A stretch of 63,083 nt of DNA, counting the filler. It is 12 parts of 12 records of this genome, joined end to end, with 100 filler letters (N's around TTAATTAATTAA, not from the genome) between each part and the next. Parts side by side here need not be neighbours in the genome. Positions count along the whole stretch, not along the records: positions 37,472 to 42,808 come from SRR9670534_129; 11 more parts are not named here. One strand, written 5' to 3'. The position numbers and the translations under genes are program-made. How positions within the stretch are numbered: position 1 is the first letter of the stretch; each line of letters begins with the position of its first letter. The notes beneath the pieces are model-generated. The model was not told the origin of the DNA, made no database searches, and saw only the letters and a program-made list of their open reading frames with translations. Shown here piece after piece: positions 17,047-59,009 of the stretch.

Positions 17047-17792
17047 ATGGAGTACCATAACGGAATTAATAAATTATTTTTTATGTCTATTATGTACTTT
17101 ATAATAAGTTCTGCATATAAGGTTAGTGGAACCTTTCCTGGAATTGACTTGGAAAATGAAGTCAGGTTAACCCTTGGTACAAAAATGATTTCCATGGTAA
17201 GTTGCTAGGGTTTTGTTCATTTACCAATTATTATTATTAATAACATGCGTTCCAATAGGGTAACAAAAAGAGCGTTGCTTGGATGGATGGCAAATGTAAT
17301 ATGACCATTGATGAAAAGATAGATATGTATTCAAAGATACGGGAAAAAGTTCTGCTAGGTGAAATGATACCAACATCAGATGCTTTGGATAATCCAAGTC
17401 TAGGAACTGGTCCCTATATAGTACAGATGAGTGGTACGAACGTCATTGAAGATGAAGTAAGCAACAACCGTGAAGTTAGCAAGCCGGTATCAAAGAAGGT
17501 GTCGAATACCTTCATTCTGGATGAAAAAACGTGGATACCCCATGAGGTGGAGAATTCAGTACAATGTGACCATGACCAGTCAGACAGACCATGCTGTAAT
17601 ACTATTGCAGGTGAAGAAAACTTAACGTTTAGAGAAACAACGGTGGTTAGACAGCCTAGGTTATTTCTAAAAAGAACTGTTAATTCAGCAAGTAACAACT
17701 GTTCGTATGAACCATTTATTTTAAAAGTACCAATTGGATGCGTTTGTAGTCTTGTCAAAATTGACAGAGGTAATCAATGTTCTACACACTAA
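17047..17792 (+). CDS. Secreted cystine-knot protein, IL-17-like gene 1 (exons 17047-17196, 17259-17792)
   Basis: Hydrophobic N-terminus (LFFMSIMYFIISSA) and a phase-0 intron. The C-terminal WIPHEVENSVQC..PCC..QPRLFLKR..CSYEPFILKVPIGCVC matches the IL-17 pattern (P..I.EA.C..GC..VLRR..V.VGCTC). Confidence 0.7.
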
Positions 17793-19824: not shown

Positions 19825-22800
19825 TCATTTATCAGCCAAACTTAATTGAACAAATTTTAAAACTGAGTCTAAACAAGGAATAATACCTTCATCCAAATAA
19901 CCAAAATGAACAAATACTTTACACAGTTTCTTAAACAGATCTTCTTGACATTCAACTTGTTGTGCTGACAGCTAAAATCAATGGCAACTATTATTAATAA
20001 TAACTACCAACACATTATTTATGAGAGGAATACATACTTGACAAATGCTATTTAAAAAGTTGGCAAAAACGTCAACGTATTCTGCTGGCAAGAGGGCAAA
20101 CAGCATCTTCGTTAGACCCTAAAGATATCGTGCATAGCATCACCTTAGAAAAAATTCAATTAATACTTACTCCTAGCAAGTGATGCATCTGTTCATTGAA
20201 TTCAGAAGAACCTGGTTTCTTTTTCAAAAAAATGTAAAATTCCGAATTTTGGATAAACTTAAAGCTAAAAAGCAGTAGTAATTCATTATTATGAACACTC
20301 AATTGACTTATTAAGTAATTTAAGTAATTTACTTCAACAATAAATGATCTCTCGATAATTTTATCGGATAGTATCGATCCTTTAAAACTTCAATGCTTTC
20401 AATTGTTGCCATATCTGGTAGTATACATGGCAAGGACATTGTTTGAAAGGCACCATTTACCAACAAAGATGCTGTAGCCCCGGAAATTTCGCTTGCTGAT
20501 TTAATGTCTTTGACACACAGCAAACCAGGAATGGTGCTTTTGACATATAAGTGTCGGAGAGCTTGCAAATGTCGTCTATTGTCATTTGGATTGTCAGGAT
20601 ATATTGGCCAAAAGGAAAGAAGCAGACAAATCAATGAAATATCACTGGCACTTGAAATTGTCATCTTGCAGCCGCCCATGAAGTTCAGGCCTAATGCCAT
20701 ATGGACTGCCATGTGATGTCCATATGTGACTTGAGGAAAGTGAGAAGAATCCAGTCTTTTTCTTAGAGCACGACAAAGCCTTAAAACTGTAAGATCGCCA
20801 GAACCAGCCATCACCAATGCCAAAGAAGTAACAATCATTACGATATAATTGTTATAATCTTTCTGAATACATGTTTCTGATTTCATATAAGATTTACTTT
20901 CAATTGCTTCTTTCGCTTTGGTTGTCAATAACTGGTAAGCATCTCTGTCTTGGGTACCAGCATATTTTAATCCAATACAAAAGTATACAGTACCAAGGGC
21001 TACCAACCAGGATTGCCTGTGAAAAGAATTTAAAATACTTACATGGTATATTTTAAAAATTGAAACTATAAAACTACAAATTTAATACAAATCATTTAAA
21101 ATTTTTTAATTATTTAAAATTTGTAATAACTCAATAAAATTAAAAATTTTTAACTTCAAACTATAAAACTACACATTTAGTACAACTTATTTAAAATTTT
21201 TTAATTATTTAACACTTTTTAATAACTCAATAAAATTATTCCTTTGAAATTTAAATTAGCCTACATCATATTATTAGAACTTTAAATTTTTAAAATCTTC
21301 ATTCAATATCTACCCGAAAAGTTCCTCATCAACATCAGCTTGACTGCTTATGGGCAGTATAGAGTTAACCTTTTGTTCAAGGGCGGAGGTGGTAGTAGGA
21401 ATACTTTGAGTCATTCGTTTTATAATATTAAACTTTGAATTAATTGCAAATTCAATCCATGATTTAGGGATGATCAAATTAACCCAGCTATCATATGGAC
21501 AAATCAGTGACCAATTTATCAAAGCCTTGGCAATAACTTTTGATACATAAAATTCGGGCTTACTCTTTGACAAGTGACCTAATGTATGTGGGAAATCAAA
21601 CCAGGAAGAAACTGTCCTACAAAGAATCTCAATATCACTTCGTTATTTATTGACTGTTCATTATGCAACTGCGTCAATCAAGAGTTATTCATTATGCGTA
21701 CGACGTCGACAGACTTCAATATTCTCAGACCTACTTACCTATTATTGGACTGGTAGAACATCAGTCCAAGAGCAATTGCTGCGGGGGCGAAGGAAATGCC
21801 TAAATTTGCCATACCATGATCCAGAATTACCTCAGAAACTTGCTTCTAAAACATTATTATTTTTGATTATTATCTTCTTTATGAATATTATTATAAATTT
21901 AATTTATTAAATTAGTATATATTTATATTACTAAATTTTAAATTAAATTAAACTTCTAAATTATCAAATTTTATTAAATTAGTATTTTTAAATTAGTAAT
22001 TAGTATTTATTAAATTTGTATCTATTTCTTAAATTAATAAGAGTAATAATTTTTTGTACAACAGACCATTCTTCTGGGAGCAGTGGGTTCTGAAGGTGGA
22101 AGTTTCTTGCCTTCCAATATGAGATGAAGACGATCTGTTATACTTGCTTCATAACGATCTTGGTTGCCTCCAGCAAGGACCATGTCCCCGTAACGGATGT
22201 TTATCATTCCAAGAGCAAAACCAGCACAAAGACAATAAGCTTCTCGTTCAGAATTGGCACCAAATGAACAGGAAATGTCACGAGATATTTCGGACAGTAG
22301 AATTTGAGATAAGTGAATATGCCGCAAACCAAATTGAATAATTCCTAAGCCAACCAACGCAGCACATTGGACTGTGGGGTGGAAATTTAAATCTATTGTC
22401 ATATCAGGAAAAAAGGCCGGAATATGCATGGTCAAGGTTCTTGCTATTGTGGTATCTACCTTACCAAATCTACAACATAGAAACGTCATGTATTTGAACA
22501 ATATCTCTGAGGTGCAATAGCCACTATAGTTTACTTACTTTGAAGATGCCAAGCCAAGTAAAATACTGATGCTAACATTGTTGTCATGCTACAGCACAAA
22601 ATATCCGACATTATTAATTAATTTATATTAAAAAAGTGCGTAATTAGATTTAACGCTAAAAGCTGGCGTTGTTAAAATAAATTTTAAATCAATTCAAATA
22701 ATGGAAAAACTAAAGTTTACCTTAAGCAAATACTTGGTAATTTCCAGTGGTGTAAGTTTTGACAAAAACCCATTCAACCCAAGGCCAAAAAGAAAGCCAG

Positions 22801-25800
22801 CACCACCTTCATCTGTAAGGCCAGAATCCTCATCATCCTGGTCAGTATCTTCATTTCTAAGATGCAGTCTATGGTCTATCTTGAAGAGCAAGTATTCCTC
22901 AATAATTTCAGCTGTAATCTTTGTTGAAGGATCATTGACATCAAAACTATTGGCGATCTCCAAAGCAGCAGCAACACCATTATGATACTTAGGCCAAGCT
23001 TGCAAGTCATCAAGAGTCTCTTTTTTCAAGAAAAATTCTGTGTTCCTCAAAAATTAGCTCATATCATGTTGACTGTTACATAAGTTTTAATGTAATTTAA
23101 TGGTATTCATACTTCGGTGGAGTAACACCATTAAAATTAACTGCTGCAAAGTCAAAATCTCCTGTTGGAATGGCATATTTTTTCGTTCTCAATTTCTTCA
23201 TACCTCTAAAGGAATTCTGTTAACGAATAATAAACTCTTTGCTACAAACAGGCTTAAATAACTAACCTGCCAATGCAAGTAGATATGTTTCGTAAGACAT
23301 GGCATAGCAACAGTTTATTCCTGGCTTCCAAGAACTCTTCATCACTAAAGTTTACACAATGAGCACGAAAAGATGTGACATCTATTTGCATTTTATTGTT
23401 AAAAACCTGCAATTAGATGTCTACCTATGTCTATGAGAAATTCTCTCACCTTTGCATTTCAGAACGATGGATAGGAACTAAGCATGGTTTGTTAGATGAA
23501 AGGATGCAATCAACCAATTGAACTCTGAAATCATCTGCAAATAATTCTGAATACAACTCCAAACTGGTACTTTCATCTTTCGTGTCACTCTCATCCTTCA
23601 AACTGTCCAATTTTCCACCAAGAAGGTATACCAAATCTTCTCTTCCAACAACTTTGAAGAGAACTATGAGCTTGTCAACTTCTTCAATGAAATCAATAGT
23701 ATCTAAGTGAGCAAGAGCATGGTTTGCACATAATGCAGAACAAAATTGTAGAAAGAATTGGAATGCAGGAGAACATGAAAGTCTCTTGAATGCCATTTGA
23801 TCTGTTAATCCTCCTTCATGGATAAAATATTCCATAGCTTTAAAAGGTCTCAAGTAAAAGTTTCCAGAGGATTGGAATAACTTTAAAGTATTCAAAATTA
23901 AAGAACCAAAGGGATAGATTAATAATGGCCACTCACTGTCTTGAGAACTTCCAGCAGATAAAAGTCTGTCAGAGAAAAAATTAACAGATGGAACAACGCT
24001 TAATTGTAACGACGAGCGAATGTTTTTAAATAAATTCTTCTTAACACATGTAGCTAATAGTTCTGTATAGTTTGGTGATTTAACAGTTTGTTCAATGGTC
24101 CAAATAGCATTAAATAAAATGTTGTAATCCTGAACAATACTACATTGAAATGTCATGCTTTGTAAACAAGATAAAATTACAGGTATGTATTCATATAAAT
24201 AGGCGGATTTTGTTTCAGGTAAGGGGATCTCAGCAAAATTGTCCACACTTGTATAACCAATTAATTCCCTCAGAAATTCCCAATCAGAAGTCATCAAAGC
24301 ACCAGAGTTCAACCGCTTTCTCTTGTTTGCTGTCTCATCAATCTCGTTATTATAATCTAAACCTATAAACTTTAAGTAAGGAAACATCGACATCTTTTAA
24401 TAGGAACTACCTGACAAAAACGCTATCTTTTCACATTTATAGCCCATTCCTTCAAACAAAACTTGAAAGAAAGCGTTCACTTCATCAGAAGTGTTAAATG
24501 ATCGAGCAAAGGTTAAATTATTTTTTCGAATATACCAATCGCTGTATAATCTAACAAACGTGTCATTTGGGAAGTTATCTTTGAGCACATTTAAAAGTGA
24601 AATTAGAAACTTTGATGTGCATGCCGAGGGTATTTGTACAACGTATTTTTCTTTATGGATAGTTTCCATGATGAGGCTTTGATGACCAAGAACTTTCAAA
24701 GCAGAAATTGCTATGCTGTCATTATTATTAACATTTCTGCTAGGTTCAGGAAGGACGGGTGAAACAAATTCCTCAGGATTCTAAAAATTACTTATATTTC
24801 AATTAATATTTAAATAATTTTAAATAAATTTTAAATAATATAATATTTATCAAAGTTATGTTATTAACAATTATTGTTACTATAGTATAGTTAATTGGTA
24901 GAGGTTAATTAATAACATCTTTTACAGGTTCGTTGAACAAAGAGGTTTTCTTGACTTGATGATTTGATGGAGTTGCATGTTTTGGAGCATTAACCAGACT
25001 CATGTTCTTAAACAACTGTTGTGTCTTTTTGATCAAAGAAAATTTCCATTGAAGGTGGGTTATCTAAAGCGTTCCAATTAAAGGTCCATATTTTTAGGGT
25101 TTTAATAATAAAGATTGTGTCTAATAAAAATATTATATAATTTGATAACAAAAAATGATAATAATTAATAATAATAAATGCTCACTTTTGACAAACCACT
25201 ATACAAGCACAGTGACGAATCGTTCTGTAAAACAGCCATAAATGGTAAATTCTAAAATTTTTGATTATGCCAGACATTAATAATTTATGTAACTATAATT
25301 ATTATAGTATAATACATTGTAAAAATATACCGGAAACACCACCACATCTTTTACTTCTCGTATCACTGTAGGAATCTCTGATAGAAATCTAGGCCTGGAG
25401 TTTTTGTAAGATCCCAGGACAGGAAGACATTCAAATTCTAACAGACAAATTTCTTCGCTGTCTTTCAAAAAATATCCCAACCAAGATTTCCCATGAATAT
25501 CTTGATGACAAAAAAATGAGGAAGCACAAGGACTTTTGACTCCAGAAGACTTTCGATCAGGCCAAGACCAAACCTTTTCAATACAAACATCAGGAGCTAA
25601 AGGCTCAATGTAATCCATTGCAAAAGAATCGTAGGTTTTATTGTCAAATGTTTGAAATGACAAATTTTTGGCACTAAGCAAATTACTATTTAATAACGGT
25701 GTTTTTCTAAGTAATGGTGTCCTGGCAGAAAGAGTGGATGCATAACTGCCACGATGATGGCTTTCTTGCCGCAGTGAAACCTTCTTAGCTGAAGCTGGAG

Positions 25801-26869
25801 TTCCTACATAATGGGCAGATGCTCCTCCGAGCATATAACTTCTTTGAGGAGTTAGTGGTACTTTCAGTAAACCACTCTTTGATGCCGCACCATGTTTAGG
25901 AAGAAAGACACATTCATGATCTGTAGGATCACCATGAAGCAGCAACAGATCATTAGATTCAATTTTACGAATGATTAAAATTTCATGAACTTGATAGACT
26001 GTGTCATAGGCCAGCAGAAAGAGAACCTTTACTATATCAGGGTTATTTCCATCATAAACTGTGCAAGAGTCAACAAACATGAAGTGAGATTCTTTTTGGA
26101 AATCAACAATCCCATCACGAGCTAAAACAGCGACATCTTTTTAGGTATTCGAAATTTCGAAAACATACAGATAATAACAGGTCGACATTCTTCCAAAGGA
26201 TGAAATATTGAAAATAAGTTTGCAACATCTGCATAAGATCCAACATTTTTTCTTTGTATTAGCAAACCTCCAGGAAATGTAAAGATGTTCGAAACCTATC
26301 AATAATCGAAGATATTTGTAATTTAATTAATTAAGACTATGAATTAAAATTAATTAATTAAGACTGTGAATTAAATTTAATTAACTAAGACCGTACCATA
26401 AAATTTACAGCCATTATGAACTCTTCTCCTGATTCTGAGTATACCAAGATATTAATATCATCCTTCAGAATACATATACTTCGAAAATGACCGGTTGTAT
26501 CTGTTAGCGCATGTTCACTATCAAGAGTAAAGCTAGCGAACATTGCTCTTCGAGAATTTGGTATGCTGAAAACTTTTTTCACTTTACCACTAATTCCAGA
26601 AGAACTAACTTTAGAAAGAATAACTGCTGAACTACAAAGAAAAATTTCTTCACAGTTCTTTGAGTAAGATGAGTCACATTCTATTATGTCCTACAAACAA
26701 GACATTATTATTATGGCAAACATGTTGCTGCAAAATCAAATTCTATTAATAGCATTTATAAAAATTTATTGAGTCTTACATCTCCTTCTTGTAGTAATCC
26801 TAAATTTGATTCACGAACACAGTTTGCCCCATGTGGTTTGAAAGGTTTTGGTTCTACTGTTATAACCAT
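19825..26869 (-). CDS. ANAPC1: Anaphase-promoting complex subunit 1, multi-exon (an alternative in-frame ATG lies at 26878)
   Basis: WPKYHNGVAAAL, GFLFGLGLNG, TLTMHIPAFFP, VQCAALVGLG, REAYCLCAGFALGMI, IGLKYAGT, VMAGSGDLTVLR, YGHHMAVHMALG and DNRRHLQALRHLY (PC-repeat region). The introns checked in the 3' half are canonical. Confidence 0.95.
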
Positions 26870-28418
26870 TTTTGTCATGTTAAGATCATTCCTAATGATA
26901 AAATAACTTGGAAAATATCATTTCTATTTACAAGCTTACTCAAACATACCAGAAGAAAAAGACAAATGCCAATAATAACAAATACAGTGTAAAAACAGAA
27001 CAGTGACTTATTTTGACTAAAACATAGCACCATAATCAGAAATTGTTAATATATATGCAAGATCAATAAATATTCATTAAAAATAAAAGGGAATGAAGAT
27101 TTTAGCATGCATATGTAAAATACTTATTGACATTATAAGCCATAATACTAATGATTGAATAACAATTTGATACAATACAGTAATAGACTATATATTACTC
27201 TACACGATAAAATATTTTATATATTATTAACACATATTGATAGTAGTACTGTAGTACATATTGAAAGTTTTATTGTTAATAACTTAATAATGCAGTCAAG
27301 GCTCAATCATAACTCTGCTTTGCATATACCATGTAGTATTTCGAATGGATGACTGTTATGCTTCTGTTTTCATTGGTTATTGATTTTACTGTTGTTAAAT
27401 AAATAGCACGGCCCGTGCTGTACGGGATAACAAAGAATGTAATGATTCATGGTAACGTAATTAGTAATTACATGGTAACTTAATGCCTAAAGGTTAGGGC
27501 CCTAGACTTTTGATTTAATAACCATAAAAGTTATGGGCTTTATGTTAATAATAACATGAGCCATGTTACATATATTAAGTATATAATTGTTCAAAAAATG
27601 AAATGTAAATAAAAGCAATAACCACGAACTGAACATAAAAACTTAGCGTGATCATTTCATTGATCAGTATTTGCCTTGTATTGAATCAATACTACTGATT
27701 GTATCGTACATACATATTTACATATTTACAAGTTTTACAGTATCGATAATAATAATAAACAATGTATATATTGAAAAATTTACATGATTTTGCTATACAT
27801 GTACCGTACATGATGTACATGTACCNNNNNNNNNNNNNNNNNNNNNNNNNNNNNNNNNNNNNNNNNNNNTTAATTAATTAANNNNNNNNNNNNNNNNNNN
27901 NNNNNNNNNNNNNNNNNNNNNNNNNAAAAAAAAAATTTTTGAGACACCCTAGTGTTACATCACTATTGATCATTATGTAATGAGAAGTAGAGGGGTTAAA
28001 TTTTGCATGTTTTTGACAAACTTTCTCAAATTTTACCCCCAACTAGGTGACGTCTATTAACATTGTGTACATAAGATAGATGTCAGGTAGTCAAGCCACC
28101 AAATAATCAAATGGTATTAATTAAACATCTACTGTTAATTAGTTATTCCAAATTAGTTTTAGTGTTATACTCAAACAAATGCAGAGACATCTTTTTTTCA
28201 ATACATTTTTACATGTAACTTTATTTTAAGCTGATTTTGAGAATTCACATTTTATTTTTGATAATTTTATTTTAGTGTACTACAGACTGTAGTACAGTAT
28301 AGTAACTACACAGTGTGTATATAAATGACATTGTACTTTTAAAAGAGCAATGAAAGCTATATTAGACGTAATTACTAGAAATGCACGTTCAAAGTATAAA
28401 AATAGTGATTTTTTTTAG

Positions 28419-30116: not shown

Positions 30117-33100
30117 CTAAAAAAGTAATAGCAACAGTTTTGTAAAGATGAAAATATTATGTAATATGTATTTCTATAAATTAATTGAGCTAAAATTAAC
30201 TATTAATGAAATTTAACTAAAAAATGAAATTATTTAGATTAATTTAAATAAAAATAAAAATATTTAAATTAAATAAAATTATTTAAATTAAAATAAATTA
30301 AAAATGAGATTATTTAAAGTTACCAAAAAAATGAAATTATTTAAATCATAGCTTTTGATTTTAAAATAATAAAATTCAAAATCATTTCTTTATTATAATA
30401 TAAAAAAATTGTTAAAACTATTTATTTATTTAATATTTTTATTTCGTACATTTATTTGATGTTGAATCAGGTTTTGATGATGTGTCTTCAGCAATAATCA
30501 TTGGTTGTGGCCAACTCAAGATTGGGTGGATTTTTGAAACTAGCTGCACAAAGGAGTGCATCAGCCTTTCTTAATTAAAAATTAATATATTGAAAAATGA
30601 ACTTTAAATTATCAGGAAAACTGTTGAATTAAAAAAGTTTAAATTCTTTGTAATTTCTATCACTACATAATATCCTTTGTCTGTTATTTCATAACATTAT
30701 TTTATAAATTAAGAATCAGAAGAAAATAATTTTATAAAATCCTAAAAGTTTAATTAAATATACTATAATAGAAATTGAATTAAAATTTTGTGAAATGATG
30801 ACTAAATTGAATGAGAGTTTGACTAGATTAAATGTGACTAAATAAGATAAACTATATATTAAATTATTATGTGGAATAACTATACAAATTCAAATTTTAA
30901 GTTAATTATTAATTCAAATTAGTTCAAAACTGCAACAAATAATGAATGTTTAAGTAATTAGAATAACTTGCTTGGTAATTTTTTTAAACTAAAATAAAAT
31001 TTGAATTTTTCTAATTAATAAAATCAATTAATTTATCTTTTTATTAAATTCAATTACATTTCAAAAGTTGTAAAAGTGAATTAATTGTAGTAAGATATGT
31101 TTTAGTTCTTTTTTATTAATATAAATTTTAATTCTTATTTATCAAATTTTTAGTACCATGCTTAGCGTATAATTTTTTATTCTTCAGAAATAAAATCAAA
31201 TAAGCTTCAATATGATTTATAAAATGTTTTAATTGTAAAAAATACCTTTTTACCTTGAACAAATTCAATTCGGAGTTCATCTAAATAAAATGCTCTCTAC
31301 AATTATACAAGACTACTGCTAAAAAGGATAAATCAGATATATACCAAATGGTTTCCCCCTAGAACAATTGCTGTCAAAGCCAATTTTCCAAACCTTTCCA
31401 AGAAAATTAATTTCATTACATTTCTACAAAAGAAAAAGAACTCTCAAATTTAATTACGTTTTCTTAATTTAATTTATTTCCACAACAAAAATGACGAAAA
31501 TCGAAAACTTGGCGACATCTTTTGAAGGTGCATAAACTCAATTTCACTCAGATCCTTTTAGGTTCTTTCACTCCTTTGGTTTCAATACAGGTAAAATTTA
31601 CCTGGTTTTAAACAAAAACAAAGAACAATGGAAAGTATCAACAAATGGTGTTGCTTTTTTGAAGTTGGATGGCATCTTTACCTGACAGTATTAGAAGTTT
31701 ATCTTTCTCTCAAATCCTGCCAGGTAAGAAGACAGCAAACTCCCAAGAAACCAAAAAAAAGCTTTGAACCTCTTCTTTGAATCATCCCTAATTAGCCATT
31801 TATATACAATACAAGCCTATGTGAAAGTTTGCAAAGGAAATTTACATAGATAATAGACATTACATCATCCAACAAATTGCCTACAAATAACTGAGGAAAG
31901 GTAAGAGGTCAGGAGCATCCTGTGTTGATATATAGCAAATATAATTGGTAAATTTCAGGTAACAATAGGTGGATGGTTAACTCCTTAGGCAAACAGCTAA
32001 GAAAGTGACTATGTGCACACCTGGATTGCAACACCTTCTTTTATGAGAGATAATACAGGTATTGTTAAGCTGCTATTGTTAGATGGTTTATGGCTGTAAA
32101 TCCCGTTATTGATAGGCACTTCTTATTTAAGATTGTAATAGAAGCTATTATTCTTTTATTGTGCATAGATTAGGTTAAATTGGACTGTAATTACATTGGT
32201 GAAGTAATTGTAAAGGCACTGTGATGAGGAAAGGTCATAAAAGGAGGGATGCTTTGGGTAGTGATGGAAAATTGTTCATTTCAATTTAAAAATTAATAAT
32301 TAATAATTAATGATTTTATGATGACTTATAATTGTTCATGTAAATTTAATAATTAATAATCAATATTTAATAATTAATAATTTTATGAAGACTTAATAAT
32401 TAATAATTTTATGAAGACTTGAAATTTGGAGATAAACAATTAGTAATTATAAATATATTAATGTTAAATATATTTTTAATATTTTAGTATTTTGTAGTTG
32501 TTGAATTAAATTGGTAAACTTATTGAATCGTTTAGTTTTTGAGTTGATTTTATTTAGTTGTTTAGTTTTTTTTCAATATTACCATTAATTAAGTATTTAT
32601 TTACTTGCTAATTTTATTATTTGGTTTAATCTCAATTATAATTAATAATAATAATGTTTTATTGTTACTTTTTATTATTACAAATGAAATTAGGTTAAGT
32701 GTAAGTATATATTATGTTCAATAAAGTTTATTGATGAAAATAAATTAATTGTATATGTTAATAACATATTATGTTATGCTTATTATTTAAAGTTAAAGGT
32801 TGTAGCTTTTGTTCATCTTTATTACTAATATTATTATTAATAATGATATTTCTTGATTTCAAATGATCTAAATCTCTAGATAAAATTTACTAAACAACAA
32901 CATGTCGAAANNNNNNNNNNNNNNNNNNNNNNNNNNNNNNNNNNNNNNNNNNNNTTAATTAATTAANNNNNNNNNNNNNNNNNNNNNNNNNNNNNNNNNN
33001 NNNNNNNNNNCTATAGGAAATGCCATAGAGCAAAAATTATCAATATAATGGATTTTGCCATAGCAAATCCAAGATTTTAATATCTCTATACTGAGCATGA

Positions 33101-35903: not shown

Positions 35904-37712
35904 GTAAGTCAGTTCTTTTCCTACTAAGAAGGTCGTTCCCACCTGTTCAGGTAACAAAAGGGATACGAACAATGAGGCTGTACTGTTAGTAGAGGATATT
36001 TTCAATAATTTTCAAGGAATATACATATGGAAACAGGCTTGTACATTCGTTGAGTGGGCATTAGCCTTGGGGGTTTATTATACGGTTTTACTGGGTACTC
36101 GATATTTAATATACCTAATAAGAATATTGGTAATTGGTAATTTTAATAATTGTATTCCAAATTAATAAGCATAATGTAGATGTAGTACAAAAGTGTTTGA
36201 GAACTAATAATATATTATTTTAAGAAATGGGGCAACTGGGGACAAATCATAACCATATGATAAGTTGTTGATTCTGCACCCCTTTTCTTTTATCTATTAT
36301 TATTAATAATTATTGATAAGTAATTTATTAATTATAAATTATTGATATATTAATTATTATTATATAACTAATAATAATAATAATAATTATTAATTATTAT
36401 ATAATTATTGATATATTAATTATTGCTATATTGATAATTTATTAATTATTGATAAGTAAATAAAGCTTTACCTAAATATATCGATTATATTTAGTAATTT
36501 AATATTCTGTTTAATAATATTTACTTACATATAATTAAATATTCATTTCTATTAGTTGCTAATTATAAATTATTACTAATAAAGACAACCTTGATTTATG
36601 CTATTCTTTATTAGCAATAATAACGATTTATCATTACAAATATAATTAATTATTATTTAATTAGCACTATTAATTTTAGCTGCATTAATAACTGTATATA
36701 ATTAATAATAATTAATCATACATGATTAGTATACTTAGTTAAAACAATTAATATTAATTAGATATTATTAATAATGATTATTCAAGTGATTTATTAGAAA
36801 TTAAAAAGGTAGTAATTATTATTAATATTATATATATTGAAAATAAGAATAACGTTAAAAGATCAATATTATTACATTATTATATAAAAGATGTAGGATA
36901 GTAACAGTACAGGCTGAAATTTACAGCTGTAATCTAATTATAAAGCAAGAAAATGCAAATTTCATAAATGCTAATGCTAATTAAATGCAAAGATCATTCT
37001 TTTTTACTACTTATGAATTCTGGATAGACTTTTACGATAACAATAATAACAATAAATCAAAATGAAAGGTAAGTGAATTTGCACAATTTGTGGTTTATGA
37101 TTTTATTAAAGTAATAGGACAATAAAGACTTTTTTTTATTAGATGTACGAAATGAAAATAACCATAATTTAATAGATAATATTTTAATAATACAATTATA
37201 ATTTTTCCTTTTACAGTGTATATTTATTAATAAAAATAATTATATTTTGTAAATGTAAATATTATAATTTTGATAATTTTTAATGTAAATATTATAATTT
37301 TAATAATTTATCAGCATCAATAAATGATTTATTATAAACCCAAGGTAATTAAAATAATTACATCTATAAATNNNNNNNNNNNNNNNNNNNNNNNNNNNNN
37401 NNNNNNNNNNNNNNNTTAATTAATTAANNNNNNNNNNNNNNNNNNNNNNNNNNNNNNNNNNNNNNNNNNNNTTAAGTGTATTAAGTGGTCCATGATAATA
37501 CCTATTGTTTGCTACTAAAATGGTTTACATCGTTAAATTATTAATAATAACATTAAATCATAACCATGATTTATGGAGTACATTCTGCATTATTAAAAAT
37601 GGTATATTATTAATATTATTACAATGTATTACTATTACTACGGCCAAAAAAAGGTCTATAGTACATGTATACTGATCAGGATAAAATATTGTCAAAAAAA
37701 AGTTCTTTCCGT

Positions 37713-40700
37713 TCACAAACTCAACAATCTTGAACGGAATTCGTCCTGGATTGTCTGAGTAGCGAAAGCGTGCTTATGCGAATTCTTGACTTTTTTGTAC
37801 ATGTTAACGACACCAAGTTGCTGCAATCGAACGCGTTGTTTTTCCGCAACCGCTGCCACCATTCCAGCACCAATTCCTGAACCATCATGAGCCAAAATCA
37901 GTTTGCACTAAAATTTAATGAATTATTAGTAAATAATGAACTATAAATGTCTATACTATAATAGTCAATTGTTATTCGAATAATAATAATAATTACTTCT
38001 GTATCCTTGACAAGTGCTTTGATATTTGCAGTCATCAAATCATGAAGTCTTGGATGAAATTTGTATAATGACCCATCAATTGCAACTGTGACCTTTGGTT
38101 TCTTGATATGTTTCAAGAGGACGCTGATGCATGCTGCCACCAATTCTGCTGCTCTATTCGATATCACTTCGCAAACGTAGTTGACGATGTGGTAATCGTC
38201 GACAGTGGCTACACTCTTTAGGTTTAACTCTTCAAATACCTCCCGTGTATTGGCAAAGTGGGTACTGTCATCGGCTTCAATCATTGACACATATCTGGTT
38301 TCGAAGGCATATTGTGTGAACAGTTCAGCTGAACCCTTTCCCTCAAAGAGAAGTCCCTCAGTGGTTAATTTCACCAAAACCTTGCGAACAATTTCACCAA
38401 GGTACATGCCACTGATTAATTTTTCAAATCTGAAACGATGTCGCTGTTACAAATCTAATTATTGTTAACATTAATAATAATAATATTAATTACTTATGCA
38501 CGCCTGCATTAGGACTTTCTACATCAACTTCTTTGTCAAATTCTGTCATGATAAAATCAATGTTGCCGTTGTCTCCAAATGCCCCCCATTCCATGTTAAT
38601 TGCTACTTGCTTGCCATTGTTTTCTGGAATGCCATCCCATTTGTCCACATTACTGATATACTCCATGTAGCAAGCATTTGTACCTGTTCCGAGAATAATA
38701 CCAATTTGGCATTCATGGTCATCCAATGCCCCTGTTACTAGCGTTCCAGTTGTGTCATTCATGATAGCAACAACGCTGATGTCCATTTCCTATGCATGTT
38801 ATGATAAGTTAATTTTTTAGTTATTGGACCTAATAAGCTTACGCCTCGTCTTTTAATGGCAAGTTCCAAATGTCTGGTAGCATTTTCATTGACACCGCCA
38901 ACAATTTTGAAGGCTTTCGTCCAGCGAAGAATGAGGCCTTCTTTTAAACTTTTTTGATGCACTGGAAAAGAAAAGGTAAACCCCAACGATAAATGTTGGT
39001 TCAAAAGATTATGATCATCCAAAAAGCCATGCAGTTTGTCAGCGATGAAGTCAAAAAGCTAAAATAGAGCATACCTAGGTAAGTCCTTGCTACAGCTAAG
39101 TACTTCAGATATTTATAAATGACAAATAATGTGTCACAAATTATTAATAATAAGGAATGAAATAGAAACCTCGCCAATGGTTCCGTTTAAAACTTTTGGT
39201 GTCAATTTAAACCCTTTGCTAACTGCTTTGGCTTTGCCATTTCTTATGCGAAGCAACATTGCTCTGAAATTAGTTCCACCAAGATCAAGAGCCAAAAAGT
39301 CGCCATTTTCTGCAAAAATATCATGTAATTTATAATAAGCACATGTTACATCATGTTGGAAAAATTATGATAATTATAACTACTAGGCCTATTAGTAGTA
39401 TTTCCTTATTATTATTCCTTATTAATAAGATGAATTTACGTCACAATATTTACCTGAACCGTCTGGTAAATCTGTTACATAGGTAACTAGCATGGGTAGA
39501 GAACTACGTGCTCTTTGGTCTTCACTTTTGCTCAACCCCATTTTCATTTCCTGCTCAAAAGTTGTCATAAGGGTTTGGAGACATCTTTCGCTTAGTTTGA
39601 AACCGTCTAAATCCTCCTCAATCTGCAAATAATTCATGGATACTTTACGATATTGATAGATGTTTTTCCCCTGCGCTTTGTGTTGTTCAAAACAGTAGCT
39701 AATAACAAAAGGCCAACAAAGTAACCCATGTTGTGCAATAAAAATGTGGTTGCTAAGGCCCTCTTTGTCAAGCTCAAAACCCTCAACATAATCTGCAGAG
39801 ATCGATAGAATGATCGAAGAAAACTTGCTTATGCAAGGCTGTATAAGAAAGGTGTGGTAGCACACCCAAAATTTGACCTAATTTTTACATTTTACTCGAA
39901 TTTCTTAAGATACTATCAGATGACTATGAACATGTGAATATTATAGAAAATTTCTATTAAAAATTAGCATTTTGCTGATGCAATAAGTTGTTTTAAGTGA
40001 TATCATATAACTTAAATGGCAAAAAGCCAAGAATTGATTATACCAACCTCATCAAAACCACGTGGCAATTGACGCGCTTACTACTGCCTTGGGTTCAGCC
40101 TACGTGAAAAACATGGCATGAGAGCAGCCACACCAGCAAGAAATCAGAATTGCCTATGTGTGTGTCTGTCTTTTTTTAGAAATGACTTCATGTTTTGCGT
40201 AGAAAACATTGAAGACTTCTAAATATTGAAAAGAAACTCACCATATCATACTATCCTCAATTTTGCGCCCGCGAGTCATGTGAAAATTACTCATACTTCA
40301 AAATACGCTTTCTCACCTATTATTATTAGTAAGAATACCCTAAATTGTATACCTAGATACTATCTATTAGATAGGTTGCACCTATGATTCACCCCAATTG
40401 GAATCAACCATATTTAGAATCCTGATTCATCTACTTCTATCAATACATGCTCGCTGAACCAGGTGTTGAGGTTCCTCAGCAATAAATTTTGCCTTATTAT
40501 AGAACTTTCAAAAATCACGTATGAATTGCAGATCCAATAAATTAAAACGCTGAACACATTACTAATAGTAACGTTGCTAACTTCAAACTTTGCGAGTTGG
40601 CATACATGATTCAAAGTCCTTTACAAATTTTAATAATATGTAGTTGTGAATCAATACGAGTACATAAGTATATGTATTTGGTATTAGTAAACGCCATCAG

Positions 40701-40936
40701 TATAGTGACAGGGTGGAAATTGCCTCATTTGCGCGGTGCAATAGTTACATTGCGCCACAATAGTTACATATTATAAGCTACTGCTTCAAACACCCCAAAT
40801 TAATTTCAAAGAGGATTTTACAAAATTTAAATGTTTACACAGCGCACCTATATGAGTAAACAACAAAACTTACCTTGGGAGCTCGGGAAAGGTGTTTTGC
40901 AGAAAGTTCTAACCTTCGTACAGCTGAGTCAGTCAT
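37713..40936 (-). CDS. HK: Hexokinase (single-domain, about 50 kDa type); six core exons 39622 to 37713 plus candidate alternative first exons (40874-40936; 40242-40244 with 40082-40099; 39649-39789)
   Basis: PMLVTYV, FLALDLGGTNFR, LGFTFSFP, RWTKAF, MNDTTGTL, ILGTGTNACYME, INMEWGAFG, FEKLISGMYLGEIVR, VAIDGSLY and DGSGIGA. All core introns are canonical. The 5' exons are inferred from splice signals and phase. Confidence 0.92.
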
Positions 40937-41096
40937 ATTTCAAAAGGCAATAATAAACTAATAATAATTGGTTATTTGAAAGAAAATTGTAAACAGGGTA
41001 AGAAAAGAGCTCTCAACCAGTATGATGGCAAATAATAATGGCAAAGAAAGAAGGAGTGGTGTATGAATATGTCAATAATTATACATCACTAAAGCA

Positions 41097-41157
41097 GTGG
41101 GCGGAGCTAAAACCGGTATAGTTTGTATGGTAACCATAACAAAAATTAATGACGTCA
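41097..41157 (-). promoter_or_regulatory. GC box (GGGCGG) and CRE (TGACGTCA, 41150-41157) upstream of the distal hexokinase exon
   Basis: Exact motifs lie about 160-220 bp 5' of the ATG at 40936 in a CpG-containing patch. Confidence 0.35.
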
Positions 41158-42403
41158 ATTCAGCCACAGCAGCTGCAGACGTACACACCCTGATTTGTGT
41201 TGGCATTGATCCAAGTATCGATTTTCTTCTTTAAACATAACCCTACCACGCCACTCATGCAATCAATCAAATAAATACCACACCAGTAAGAAGTATAGCT
41301 AGCAGAAAATTATAATATTCGTATTATACGTATTATTATTATCATGAGCTATAATTGCACACGGTTTCTTCCTTGCCTACGCAAAGCCCTATGTAAACTC
41401 TGTATTGTATTTTTAGTCATGGCTGCTAACGTAGTAAACTCTACAAAGTAGGATGAGTACACAAATGCCTCCCTAATTTGTCATGGGGAAAAATAGCAAT
41501 ATAGTGACGCATCTCCAATTTAATCAAAAATGTTAGTGACATCAATAGTGTAATTGAATTTATTTCATAATAAAAAATTGAAGTGCACGGGTGTTGTCTA
41601 CAGCTGGGAAAAAGACCACATATGAAATGTGTATTTTAAATGTTAGGCCACCTAATATTACGGTAAAATTGTTTCTCATTCACACTTTCCATTCATAAGA
41701 ATGTCGTGGCATTAGCTATTGATCACATCCCTACATTCCTTCCTGCTGTTATTAAAATAAATAAGCAAATAATCTCAAAAAATTCCATTAGACGTCTGAT
41801 TATACAGCATTAATAATAAATGACAGTTTTTTTACTGCAGTAATCATAAAATTTTTTGGAGAGATTTGTCAGTCTAGACAAAGCTTTTAATAAATATTCC
41901 ACAAATATTAAATAATTTAATGGTAAAAAATGATCTTATTAATAATAACGTTACAGTGCAGCTTTTTTAGTGGTAGTTATACTATAACTGTTATAGTAAC
42001 TACATGTAATAAAAAGTGACTGATTTTTTATCGAAAACTGCAAATTGCTACTGTCTGTCAGACACGTAGAATGATTCTGCTAGAATTATACCATGATATT
42101 GTTAATTTAGTAATAATATATGATATCTAAAAACTTGTTTGTATGCATTTGCAAAATAAATAAAATTTAATAATGGTGTTTATACAACAGTAATGTTAAT
42201 AATAAAGAGGTTATTGAATTAATAATAATAAATAAAATATTGATATGAAACTTTCATAATGAAAGTTCAAAACGAAATTTCAAAAATTCATAATGAAATT
42301 TTTATAAAGTTATTATATATTTTAACAATGTTGTAAATTATTACAACATCAATATTATTATTTGCAAATTGCAAGTTTACACTGTTGGCAAACTGTAATT
42401 ATT

Positions 42404-42579
42404 CTAGTAACAAGGTGGTAATTCACAATATCTCCTTTCAATGTAAGGATCACATGGTTTTCCTCCAAATCTAGGTCTCTGCTTTAGTCTTCTACTTCTT
42501 TCTTGGATAGAATCTACATATCCACACGTGACTGGACAACTTGACCATTCAGACCAATCTCCCAAAACGCAATCTTTAG
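42404..42579 (-). CDS. Terminal exon encoding a spondin-type thrombospondin type-1 repeat (not in the ORF track)
   Basis: KDCVLGDWSEWSSCPVTCG..QERSR..QRPRFGGKPC..IERRYCELPPCY* has WxxW, CxxTCG, RxR and GGxxC. Phase-1 acceptor at 42580-81. Confidence 0.85.
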
Positions 42580-44346
42580 CTAAAGATTTTCTATTATCTT
42601 CATATTATATTAATTATTATTAACTAACATTATTATTATTAATAACATAGTAATATTATGTATTACCAACAAGAGTATTTGTATACTTACAGTATAATTA
42701 TAAGTAAATTTCATAAATAATATGGTATACCATGCTATTTATATATTATTATATACTATATATTATTATTATTATTATTATATATTATATACTATATATA
42801 GTATATAGNNNNNNNNNNNNNNNNNNNNNNNNNNNNNNNNNNNNNNNNNNNNTTAATTAATTAANNNNNNNNNNNNNNNNNNNNNNNNNNNNNNNNNNNN
42901 NNNNNNNNTGTATTGCATTGTTATTATTATTAAATACAATAACTTCATAATCTATTACTAATAATATTATCTGTTTTTTAGTATAATTTCATAGTCTAAT
43001 AGTATCATAATTTATTAAAACTCATAATGCTAATATTCTAGCTTTGCTCCTTATTATTTTATGTCTATTAATATTAGCAGGCAATTATTACAAACATTAA
43101 TAATAAATTAATGATCAACATTAATAATAAATTAATGATCAATTCTTTCTGAAATTTGCCAATTTGTTGATATTTCTTGAGAATGTTTAAGGTGCAATTG
43201 CTAATTACCTGTTAATTGCTAAGCTATGATAATCATAGTATTGTATGATTGTCATAGTTTTTGTATCATTATTATTATATGTAGTTGCAGTAGTTATTAT
43301 AAATATTACATATATTAAAAAATTGAATATTTTTAGAATAAAGTTTATTGCAATGAAAATATTGTGTATTTATTATTAATGAGCAAAGTTGTAGGAACAA
43401 AATTAGAGAACAGTAACTCAAGCAAAGAAAATTACTACATGTAAAGAACAATTGTGATCAATTGGACAATGACAAAAGTGCATTAATTAACAAGCTGAAC
43501 ACCATTTTGAAACAATACTAATAATAAAAGAATAAAATGTAACAAAGGAAAAATGATGCGGATTAAATGCAATAAGATACGTGTCTGCATATTCTGTAAC
43601 AATTTTCATTGCGTATTGCAAAACTACAGTCTGATGTACAATGGTACAATTTGTACTGTACAATATCTATACATTATAAAGACTTAGTTTTACAGCAATA
43701 TACATTGTATATTATACAAGCATTACCATGGGACATACTGTAAGGTGAACCGCATTGATGTACTGATACAGCATATAGATGTACGATACAGATGTACTGT
43801 AAGAAAAACGTAAATGTACAGTACAGTATATCTACTGTATAGCTTCGTAGTAAGATGTACCATATTGCGTCGTTAATGTACTGTACCGTACATGTACCAT
43901 CAAAATTTCGTTGTAAAATGTACCGTACATATAAGATACATCTTACAGCGAAATTTTTATAGTACATGTATGGTACGTTACATTTAATACGCCATATAGT
44001 ACATCTTACAGAGAAAGTTCATAAATCTACTAGCTTTGCAAATCTTCGTAAATGTATTGTACCATACATACATAATACATTTTGTAGTACTGCGCATAGT
44101 ACATTTTGTAGTACTAATATGTAGTACATTATGTACTGTACATATTGCTATCTAAGTTAAATGCAAAACATAAGTATTTGGAAGAAGCATATAAGTATTT
44201 TATAACGTAGTAACAACAATTACAGTAGGAGTATTTTTATAAAACTAAGCTCTTGATAAAATAATGTTGTATATTTTCCAAACAGTGTAACAATAAACAA
44301 AGTACGAACAGGCATGAATAATAAAAGTCGTAATATGTTGCAAAAA

Positions 44347-45098
44347 TTATGGAGAAATTATGGATTTTACAATCTTGTCACTTTTCATCGGGCTTCGGTG
44401 TGTCTAAAATATGCGTATGCTGCATAACGTGACGTTATTATTAACCTCACTTATTATTACATAATATGTATATAATTATTACCCTGATAATACGAAACCT
44501 TGAACCCGCGTGGTCTTACAGCACCTCTGGCTTCTCGCTCCACCTGTTGAGAAAACCAAGCCTTGAAATCTTTCACGGTTGGTCTTGCAGTACTTCTGTT
44601 TCGTTCTGAAGACCTTGTGGTGCACTTCTGGCTTGCTGCTGGCAAAACTTTCGAAACATTTGGTTTCCAAGCCATTTTCGAAAGATTTGGATTACAAACC
44701 TTTGGAATGGTAGGAACTGAAACATTATAATCCTTCTTCAGTTTACTGGCCAATCTTTCAGTTGTGTCTTTGAAATTTTCTGCCTGTCGAATAGTACGAA
44801 ACTTCAAGCAATACTTTTCACCTTCATCAGACCAAACACATGAAAATGGGTATCCTTCATCTTCCGAAACATCGACATCTTGACAATCATAATCTGTCGT
44901 AATGATGTGATCAAAGAAGAGCGGCTTTTCTGGAGAACTTCTCACAGTGATTCTAATCTTTTTCGATTGGTTTATCTCTTTAATTATCATCATTCCAGAT
45001 CCGCGCAAAGCCCATGAGTTATTTTTCACCCTCGAAAGCCGAAATAGTGAAATATCCGCAGCCAGATAAATATTTTCGCATATACATGTAGCATCCAT
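44347..45098 (-). CDS. Divergent Ran-binding-domain (RanBP1-like PH fold) protein with a basic tail, 2 coding exons
   Basis: LFRL..NSWALRGSG..IRITVR..DHII..SCVW..YCLKF..AENFK parallels the RanBD consensus (LFRF..EWKERG.G..IRLLMR..NH.I..AWVW..LAIRF..A..FK). A short last exon ends ISP*. Confidence 0.65.
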
Positions 45099-46154
45099 TT
45101 TTACAAATTTCTAAAACAAAATCATCATAGTAAGGCTATTGTCAATGTAATATGATACGTATCATACAATACATGCACCTTCCTTTCTTCGTACTAAAAA
45201 GACTAAATCCTTGTCATTGTAATAACATAGGTAGGTACATAAAATTTTTGTGACAAAAGATATTTTATTGTTATTACATATTATTATTAATAACAATACT
45301 GGATTTGATACAATTATACAATGTAGTATGTATAGTTGTATCAGTAAATTACATGCCTACAGTAGTATGTACATATGTGCAAATTAAAAATACATATAAA
45401 ATATAATAATAATATGTAATACATTGTATGTAATACTATGTATGTAATTTATTGTTTACAAATTTACATTGCAACAATATATAAAAAAAATATCTTTCTT
45501 TTTTGCTACTTGTATCATATGTATATACAATTTGCATAAAACTTATATGATAAAATTAACAAATAAAAGCTTATATAATGTATATATAATGATAACAATA
45601 ATACTTATGAATGTATGAAAAAACAACAGTTATTGAAATTTGCTACAGTAGTACTACAAATGCTAGAAAAACAACAGCAACTTGGGCAATTCTTAGTTAC
45701 CATAAATGTTTGATGTTTTTTATAAAAAGCTAATATATCTTAATTGTAAAGTATATTATATTTATAAATTAAAGTAGTTTATAAACCATATTACTTAATT
45801 TCAAACAAAAATGAACTATTCAAATATACTTAAAAAATTAGATAATTTTATTAACAATAATCTTTTTTTTCTATTTTAAAGTTTTATCATGAAAAATTTA
45901 ACAAATAATTAACTATAATGTACTTACTTAGTTATTATAAAAACTATTGATAGTAGATGTTACTTTATAATAAAAAAGTATAAACAAAGACTTGGCTAGT
46001 AAATAATATTTATATATTACTATTATTTTTATCAATAAAAGTACATATAAAAAANNNNNNNNNNNNNNNNNNNNNNNNNNNNNNNNNNNNNNNNNNNNTT
46101 AATTAATTAANNNNNNNNNNNNNNNNNNNNNNNNNNNNNNNNNNNNNNNNNNNN

Positions 46155-57788: not shown

Positions 57789-59009
57789 NNNNNNNNNNNN
57801 NNNNNNNNNNNNNNNNNNNNNNNNNNNNNNNNTTAATTAATTAANNNNNNNNNNNNNNNNNNNNNNNNNNNNNNNNNNNNNNNNNNNNTAAAATGAAAGA
57901 GTTATTCTCAAAAAATGTAGCTACCTGATAACTACATATTGAATTAAGAATCTTAATTTTAATCTTAATTTAAGATTGATCTATATTTCTAGGATAGAAA
58001 CAAGTCACTTACAGGTCCCAACAATGCAAGTTGCAAAGAAAAGTAAGTATATATTTCTCAGGCAGCAACAGAACATACTTTCCTTAACAACATTAAACGT
58101 TAATGATAATAACAAAAGTCTTATTATTATTAATTGAAATTGATCCTATCGCGATATTAGTAGTGACACATAAACAGCATTATTATACATGAACAATTAG
58201 TTGTTATCACAATTGCTGTCACAATTATCATACCGGCACTCATAACTAGACATAATGTGCACCATTATTCATTTATAATGGTCAAATGTTATTTCTTTAT
58301 GCTTGATAACCATAACAGTCTGCATTATCTATTCAGGGGATTGTGTCATTATTGTGTTTCAAGAAATTAGTTGAAGTCAACTACTACTACTACTACTACA
58401 AATACTCTTACTACTAGTAATATTAAAATTTGTCTGATCTATGAATGTCCTTGGTGTAGCAAGACCTGAAAAAATGTTATTAAAGCCCAATAGTTATAAA
58501 TGGACCTAGAATTTTTAACTGTTCTAAGAGCGAAACATAAGCGACAAGTGTAGCTTACACTGTGTAAGTGCCAGCGTGTCCTATCGTCACCAGTACTACT
58601 CTGAGAGTACTACTACTATAGTACTACTCTGAGAGTAGCAATAAATAGATCTCTGAGATATAGGCTATATCATATAGCATACAGGTATGAAAACGAGTCG
58701 TTTACATACAGTTTGCAACATACCTGTATGCCATATCCTTGTTGTAATGATACTTTCAAAACCAACGAAGGTAATTAACTTTATTAATTAATAATAATCA
58801 TTATAGCAACCATAAAGTCTGATGAATCAATGGCTTTCTCAAAGTTCAAGATTTCCTCCATTTTGATTTATCTGTTATTATAATCTTATCAACATATGTA
58901 TTGTAGCTATAGCGAATATTACAAAAGTACTGTTTCCAATACACGATTAAAATTCTGGACTCCAATTGGAGTATTTAAAAACACAACACTTTCTAAGAAT
59001 TTGAAAATG

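Follow-up and report, generated by a model that had tools for sequence, protein, structure and literature searches.

The 63-nt stretch at 40874..40936 on the minus strand of the analysed window (63,083 nt of DNA, 12 parts joined end to end) is probably the ordinary exon 1 of a hexokinase gene; on this reading the RL-x5-HL sequence that it encodes arose by accident or lacks the strength to act, and the enzyme would be cytosolic. Very probably the exon is part of the hexokinase gene and provides the start codon. We propose that translation of a single-domain bilaterian invertebrate hexokinase (~50 kDa, 503 residues) would begin in this short exon, which adds 21 N-terminal residues of hydrophilic, basic character, and that a phase-0 splice over an intron of 1251 nt would join it to exon 2, the exon in which the Pfam hexokinase match starts; the protein itself is most likely cytosolic. 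With this exon, the gene model of an unannotated invertebrate hexokinase is complete.

All seven exons of the model lie on the minus strand. Exons 2–7 were placed by tblastn with three relatives (P0123, P0135 and P0143), whose matches span 39625-37767, and their splice sites were read from the sequence. Exon 2 (39454..39622; IEEDLDGFKLSE...DLPDGS, donor CAG/GTAAAT) matches Pfam PF00349 (E 6e-09), while exons 5 (38494..38789) and 6 (37997..38429) match PF03727 (E 4.8e-24 and 1.7e-42, respectively); exon 3 (39170..39309, ENGDFLALDLGGTNFR...), exon 4 (38843..39058) and exon 7 (37713..37907, with the stop codon and the C-terminus ...RSRLLSL) rest on tblastn and splice sites. Both hexokinase domains are encoded downstream of exon 1. 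Joined together, the seven exons make 1512 nt and 503 codons with one terminal stop, and the reading frame stays intact across the phase-0 junction of exon 1 with the acceptor at 39622, as the earlier sequence-only reading of this DNA had proposed. GT..AG borders are present in 6/6 introns. Intron 1 (39623..40873) has 1251 nt and 35% GC, and the remaining five have 53–144 nt and 16–28% GC; the intron-1 acceptor, ttatttgcag/ATT, is of the same quality as the other five, with 10 pyrimidines at positions -23..-4 versus 11–13.

The nearest hexokinase found is that of the annelid Owenia fusiformis, with 50% identity across the large exon; in another search, whose listed matches were dominated by vertebrate tandem hexokinases, no relative exceeded 45% identity. 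The ESM Atlas search returned generic hexokinase clusters only. Short runs of N occur in the window at about 27878-27925, 32955-33010, 37370-37419, 42810-42900, 45928-46106 and 57790-57840 (15–16 X in the translations), none of them within the hexokinase gene or its upstream region.

Exon 1 has the letters that were described for it: on the minus strand aaatATG begins at 40936, the ATG and 20 further codons encode MTDSAVRRLELSAKHLSRAPK, and the exon ends at 40874 in AAG/GTAAGT, in phase 0. An in-frame TGA (40940..40942) stands two codons 5' of the ATG, so that the 63-nt stretch can only be a start exon; it cannot be internal to the coding sequence of another gene. The start context, aaatATGa, has a purine at -3. 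To place the exon among comparable stretches, all ATG-started, stop-free stretches ending in phase 0 at a GT were collected from the minus strand of 39623-42400. There were 41 such candidates, and just one, 40874..40936, matches the donor pattern MAG/GTRAGT at 7/7 positions, the runner-up scoring 5/7. Inside intron 1 the scan for other start exons gave a top donor score of only 3/7. Of 3000 random 2.8-kb regions, generated by a first-order Markov model matched in size and composition to the real region, 0.4% held a candidate with 10 or more codons and a 7/7 donor, and 7.8% held one of 6/7 or better. The exon is also richer in GC (47.6%) than intron 1 (34.5%) and the upstream spacer (29%), a value attained by 3.5% of the 63-nt windows around it.

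Two promoter-type motifs lie upstream, and in this respect too the sequence-only reading was accurate, since a CRE and a GC box are both present 160–220 bp 5' of the ATG. The CRE-like element is the palindromic octamer TGACGTCA (41150..41157, ~215 bp 5' of the ATG), which has 2 matches in the whole window versus 0.25 expected; the GC box (41099..41104) reads GGGCGG on the plus strand, CCGCCC on the strand of the gene, ~165 bp 5' of the ATG, with 3 matches of GGGCGG in the window versus 1.38 expected. Both would be promoter elements by sequence and position. The 9-mer AAGGTAAGT occurs 3 times in the 63 kb, with 0.83 expected. Transcription probably starts in the ~200 bp that separate the CRE/GC-box pair from the ATG.

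A short variable first coding exon is what should be expected of a hexokinase gene, as indicated by the junctions of HK1 isoforms and by the extension lengths of relatives. We compared sets of proteins named as products of one HK1 gene: Macrotis lagotis X1-X3 (P0007-P0009), Sminthopsis crassicaudata X1-X4 (P0062-P0066) and the pair P0033/P0036. Members of a set differ wholly in their N-termini and then meet at I-D-K-Y-L-Y-x-M-R-L-S-D-E, which implies that alternative first exons join a common exon 2 at this point. Exon 2 of the window's gene opens at the aligned residue, with I-E-E-D-L-D-G-F-K-L-S-E, so its phase-0 junction falls directly ahead of the I/V-D/E-x-x-L start of the common body. 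The standard HK1 peptide ahead of I-D-K-Y-L (e.g., P0008) has 21 residues, exactly as many as the window's exon 1. Extension lengths were taken from 46 representative hexokinases of single-domain size that start with Met, 23 of which could be aligned to exon 2 (for the other 23, the first 120 residues showed no match to it); the median extension of the 23 is 23 residues versus 21 here, with exactly 21 in three, at most 8 in four and more than 30 in ten.

Phase, donor, continuity of the reading frame, promoter motifs and the homologous junction position together make it very probable that exon 1 belongs to the hexokinase gene, and the ownership claimed for it is upheld on each of these points. 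The exon had also been called hidden; its place and size are those of the canonical hexokinase exon 1, and the match to mammalian HK1 in first-exon position and 21-codon length is expected rather than surprising. The peptide itself, compared by blastp-short with the first 80 residues of 372 hexokinases, found nothing better than four residues at E 2.8, and is lineage-specific. A short echo exists within the gene between L-E-L-S-A-K-H-L of exon 1 (40889-40915, minus strand) and F-K-L-S-E-R-C-L of exon 2 (39590-39613, minus strand), with 3/8 residues identical and a shared L-S-x-basic-x-L; it is probably a coincidence.

Other connections of exon 1 were tried. The gene next upstream on the same strand has a thrombospondin type-1/spondin-like terminal exon (PF19028, E 1e-14) at 42404-42604; as an owner of the 63-nt exon it was rejected, its frame stopping at 42404-42406 with an AATAAA at 41564, and read-in from it is blocked by the TGA ahead of the ATG. 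A route from exon 1 via 40099, which had been offered as a variant of the junction, does not hold: after the acceptor ...cacgtag/ the frame meets a stop after 15 codons, and a rescue needs an 18-nt micro-exon with a poor donor (GTA/GTAAGC). An acceptor near 39795 joined to exon 1 was likewise discarded, the frame stopping at 39634 (ORF 39634..39828).

The suggestion of an alternative promoter found no second good first exon to attach to; the sole other possible start is an ATG at 39635..39637 (minus strand), which lies in the ORF of exon 2 (39422..39877) just 5' of the acceptor and would give MNYLQ ahead of IEEDL.... A transcript beginning within intron 1 could use this ATG, for the main or for a second form of the protein. 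It is unlikely, though less so than the explanations discussed further below, that the main protein starts at 39637 from a promoter within intron 1 and that the 63-nt ORF is minor or lies outside the main mRNA. The frame is indeed open 5' of the exon-2 acceptor, with this in-frame ATG five codons ahead, and extensions of at most 8 residues occur in 4/23 relatives. Intron 1 is much longer and GC-richer than the other five (1251 nt and 35% versus 53–144 nt and 16–28%), which would fit an embedded regulatory sequence, and mammalian HK1 has several first exons. However, the context of this ATG, tccATGa, has no purine at -3, whereas aaatATGa has one. Moreover, 39637 lies within a 52-codon ORF that begins at an out-of-frame ATG (39789) and stops at 39634-39636; any transcript starting above 39789 would carry it as an upstream ORF. 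The donor statistics and the promoter motifs of exon 1 would also have to be a coincidence. The out-of-frame ORF as a whole (39634-39828, minus strand) begins MLRVLSL..., contains the hydrophobic stretch GYFVGLLLLATVL and stops 12 nt short of the exon-2 acceptor; it may have arisen by chance or may belong, as an upstream ORF, to a transcript that starts in intron 1.

With exon 1 as the probable ordinary start of the hexokinase, the nature of its nonapeptide has to be considered. Translation and motif scan give RLELSAKHL at residues 8-16 (40889..40915, minus strand), with all four classical PTS2 residues (R8, L9, H15 and L16); it fits R-L-x5-H-L, and its third x is Ser, just as had been said. 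The sequence is proline-free and helix-compatible, the first Pro of exon 1 being residue 20, and it falls within the first ~40 residues in which a PTS2 nonapeptide is expected (PMC7710942). It passes the original consensus, (R/K)-(L/V/I)-X5-(Q/H)-(L/A), but fails the extended one, R-(L/V/I/Q)-X-X-(L/V/I/H)-(L/S/G/A)-X-(H/Q)-(L/A) (PMC4585086), at Ser12, the central position. According to the accounts in PMC4585086 and PMC7710942 the central residue is large and hydrophobic throughout; charged substitutions at this position abolish function, an effect that the relevant passage of PMC4585086 reports for charged residues only. The same source describes an unstructured stretch after the nonapeptide. 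Between the nonapeptide and exon 2 the window's protein has five residues, SRAPK, and the match to the Pfam hexokinase domain runs from exon-2 residue 4.

How often such a motif arises was assessed in several sets. RLx5HL has 5 occurrences per 263,886 hexokinase residues and 3 per 112,736 six-frame residues of the window; it is present in 1/504 first-ATG ORFs of the window, the one being exon 1, and arises in 0.19% of shuffles of the exon-1 21-mer. The motif is thus rare by chance, and the match in exon 1 is not trivial. Neither RLx5HL nor the extended motif, used here in a broad version wider than the published one, was found in the first 60 residues of any of the 372 hexokinases, the nearest relative found being only 50% identical. 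A loose PTS2 pattern occurs in the first 60 residues of 19/372, always beginning at residues 19-34; 16 of the 19 are K/R-V-D-K/R-Y/F-L-Y-H-L, the common start of the HK body in fishes and a reptile, and these lie in the body of the enzyme and not in a private extension.

It is improbable that the nonapeptide is a weak functional PTS2, through which PEX7 would import part of a dually cytosolic and peroxisomal hexokinase pool. Such a role would draw on the position of the motif at residues 8-16, its proline-free build with R, L, H and L all in place, and the rarity of RL-x5-HL by chance. It also has parallels, as many of the PTS2 nonapeptides predicted in Nannochloropsis are encoded by a short exon 1, ahead of a functional domain that begins with exon 2 (PMC7710942), and hexokinases 1 and 2 of Trypanosoma brucei bear a PTS2 (PMC3195984, Table 1). 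Against it stand the central Ser in place of L/V/I/H, the short stretch of five residues, SRAPK, where an unstructured linker is described for PTS2 signals, and the absence of such a motif from the N-terminal extensions of the 372 hexokinases. Furthermore, the canonical RLx5HL of NgHIT1 failed on a reporter, the protein reaching mitochondria and not peroxisomes, and that of the thiolase NgPKT targeted only weakly in plant cells (PMC7710942); RLx5HL alone, therefore, does not predict import. Nor does the C-terminus of the hexokinase provide a PTS1, as ...LSL is outside the PTS1 patterns quoted in PMC4690255. The presence of PEX7 cannot be assumed either, since all nematodes have lost it (PMC4690255), and its loss is also described for C. 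elegans and some algae (PMC8172628), so that whole animal lineages lack the receptor.

The RL-x5-HL of exon 1 is incomplete as a signal, and most likely accidental or too weak to act; "accidental" is a judgement, because the find was post hoc while the motif itself is rare by chance. The description of the motif as peroxisomal is not supported, in view of the failure of the extended consensus at Ser12, the five-residue linker and the 0/372 count, and the present evidence does not justify a peroxisomal reading. A bilaterian animal that keeps part of its hexokinase in peroxisomes by a non-canonical PTS2 with a central Ser in the first exon would be a case with little likelihood. The best literature matches on PTS2 hexokinases deal with kinetoplastids, diplonemids and yeasts or with peroxisome biology in general, and their titles and abstract openings name no animal PTS2 hexokinase. 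If it were true, this would be, as far as the literature search shows, the first PTS2-targeted hexokinase beyond the kinetoplastid/diplonemid lineage. It would place step one of glycolysis inside an animal peroxisome, an arrangement established, by the account in PMC3195984, only for kinetoplastid glycosomes, and it would mean that PEX7 tolerates a small polar residue at the PTS2 centre.

The 21 residues of MTDSAVRRLELSAKHLSRAPK include five Arg/Lys and one His versus two acidic residues, in a Leu/Ala/Ser-rich helical pattern. It is very improbable, more so than a weak PTS2, that exon 1 is real and supplies a basic amphipathic peptide for another localisation or regulation (mitochondria, another membrane or a phosphorylation site), even though the basic excess and the helical pattern would suit this, and the first exon of HK1 sets localisation, by porin binding and by a unique N-terminus in the sperm isoform (PMC11050395, PMC4736023). 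The peptide resembles none of the 372 hexokinase N-termini (best E 2.8, four-residue matches) and, unlike the HK1 N-terminus, is not hydrophobic. With five Arg/Lys and two acidic residues it does not resemble the porin-binding hydrophobic helix of the HK1/HK2 type. Acidic residues are untypical of a mitochondrial presequence, and here two of them are followed by the acidic start of exon 2; on composition a mitochondrial presequence in exon 1 is unlikely.

The remainder of the window gives some indication of its source. A precursor of the mir-8/mir-141/mir-200 family lies at 31668-31736 on the minus strand (52.3 bits versus the Rfam gathering threshold of 47, E 1.2e-08). This match and the animal best matches indicate a bilaterian animal, perhaps a spiralian. 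Two tandem genes of LMW phosphotyrosine phosphatases (PF01451; 8716-9180 and 9683-10177, both on the minus strand) stand ~500 bp apart and are apparently intronless; their database relatives, at most 54% identical, come from fishes, gastropods, an aphid, amphioxus and a bryozoan. A compact, AT-rich region (29% GC) with short introns holds an APC1-like gene (20332-26140, minus strand; weak PF21282 match), a polycystin-type cation channel (PF08016; 15717-16355, minus strand), a JAB/MPN deubiquitinase-like exon (PF01398; 14476-14862, plus strand) and an Alg9-like mannosyltransferase (PF03901; 6642-8447, minus strand). An ORF at 17259-17789 on the plus strand has a weak interleukin-17-like match (PF06083, E 0.0011, 19.7 bits, under the 24-bit cut-off) and could encode an invertebrate IL-17-type cystine-knot ligand. 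An ORF with a RanBP1 domain (PF00638) is located at 44457-45110.

Among known systems, glucokinase (hexokinase IV) has short hydrophilic first exons, tissue-specific promoters and no known organelle targeting. The window's gene resembles it in its single-domain product and in having an N-terminal exon that is short and hydrophilic; glucokinase has its tissue-specific promoters, whereas two promoters were not found for the window's gene. The hexokinases of the kinetoplastid glycosome, TbHK1 and TbHK2, are PTS2 proteins imported through PEX7, and share with the window's enzyme an N-terminal nonapeptide of the R-L-x5-H type (PMC3195984). In kinetoplastids, however, PEX7 import has been established and the glycolytic pathway is largely compartmentalised, while the window's putative motif, from a bilaterian animal, has a central Ser and a five-residue linker. 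With the PTS2 of peroxisomal 3-ketoacyl-CoA thiolase the motif has in common its N-terminal position, the four key residues and helix compatibility, but thiolase and other compiled PTS2s have a large hydrophobic centre and a cleavable unstructured linker (PMC4585086), from which it differs.

Vertebrate HK1 is a tandem enzyme of 100 kDa, whereas the window's gene encodes a single unit of 503 residues. HK1 has alternative first exons, in contrast to the window's gene, for which none were found, and its standard first exon encodes a hydrophobic peptide that attaches to the mitochondrial outer membrane and porin (PMC11050395), while the peptide of the window's gene is hydrophilic, basic and dissimilar. 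Nevertheless, the somatic, sperm and erythroid-type isoforms of HK1 likewise have a short coding exon ahead of a shared exon 2, which begins with I-D-K-Y-L in HK1 and with I-E-E-D-L in the window's gene, and the standard first exon encodes 21 residues in both.
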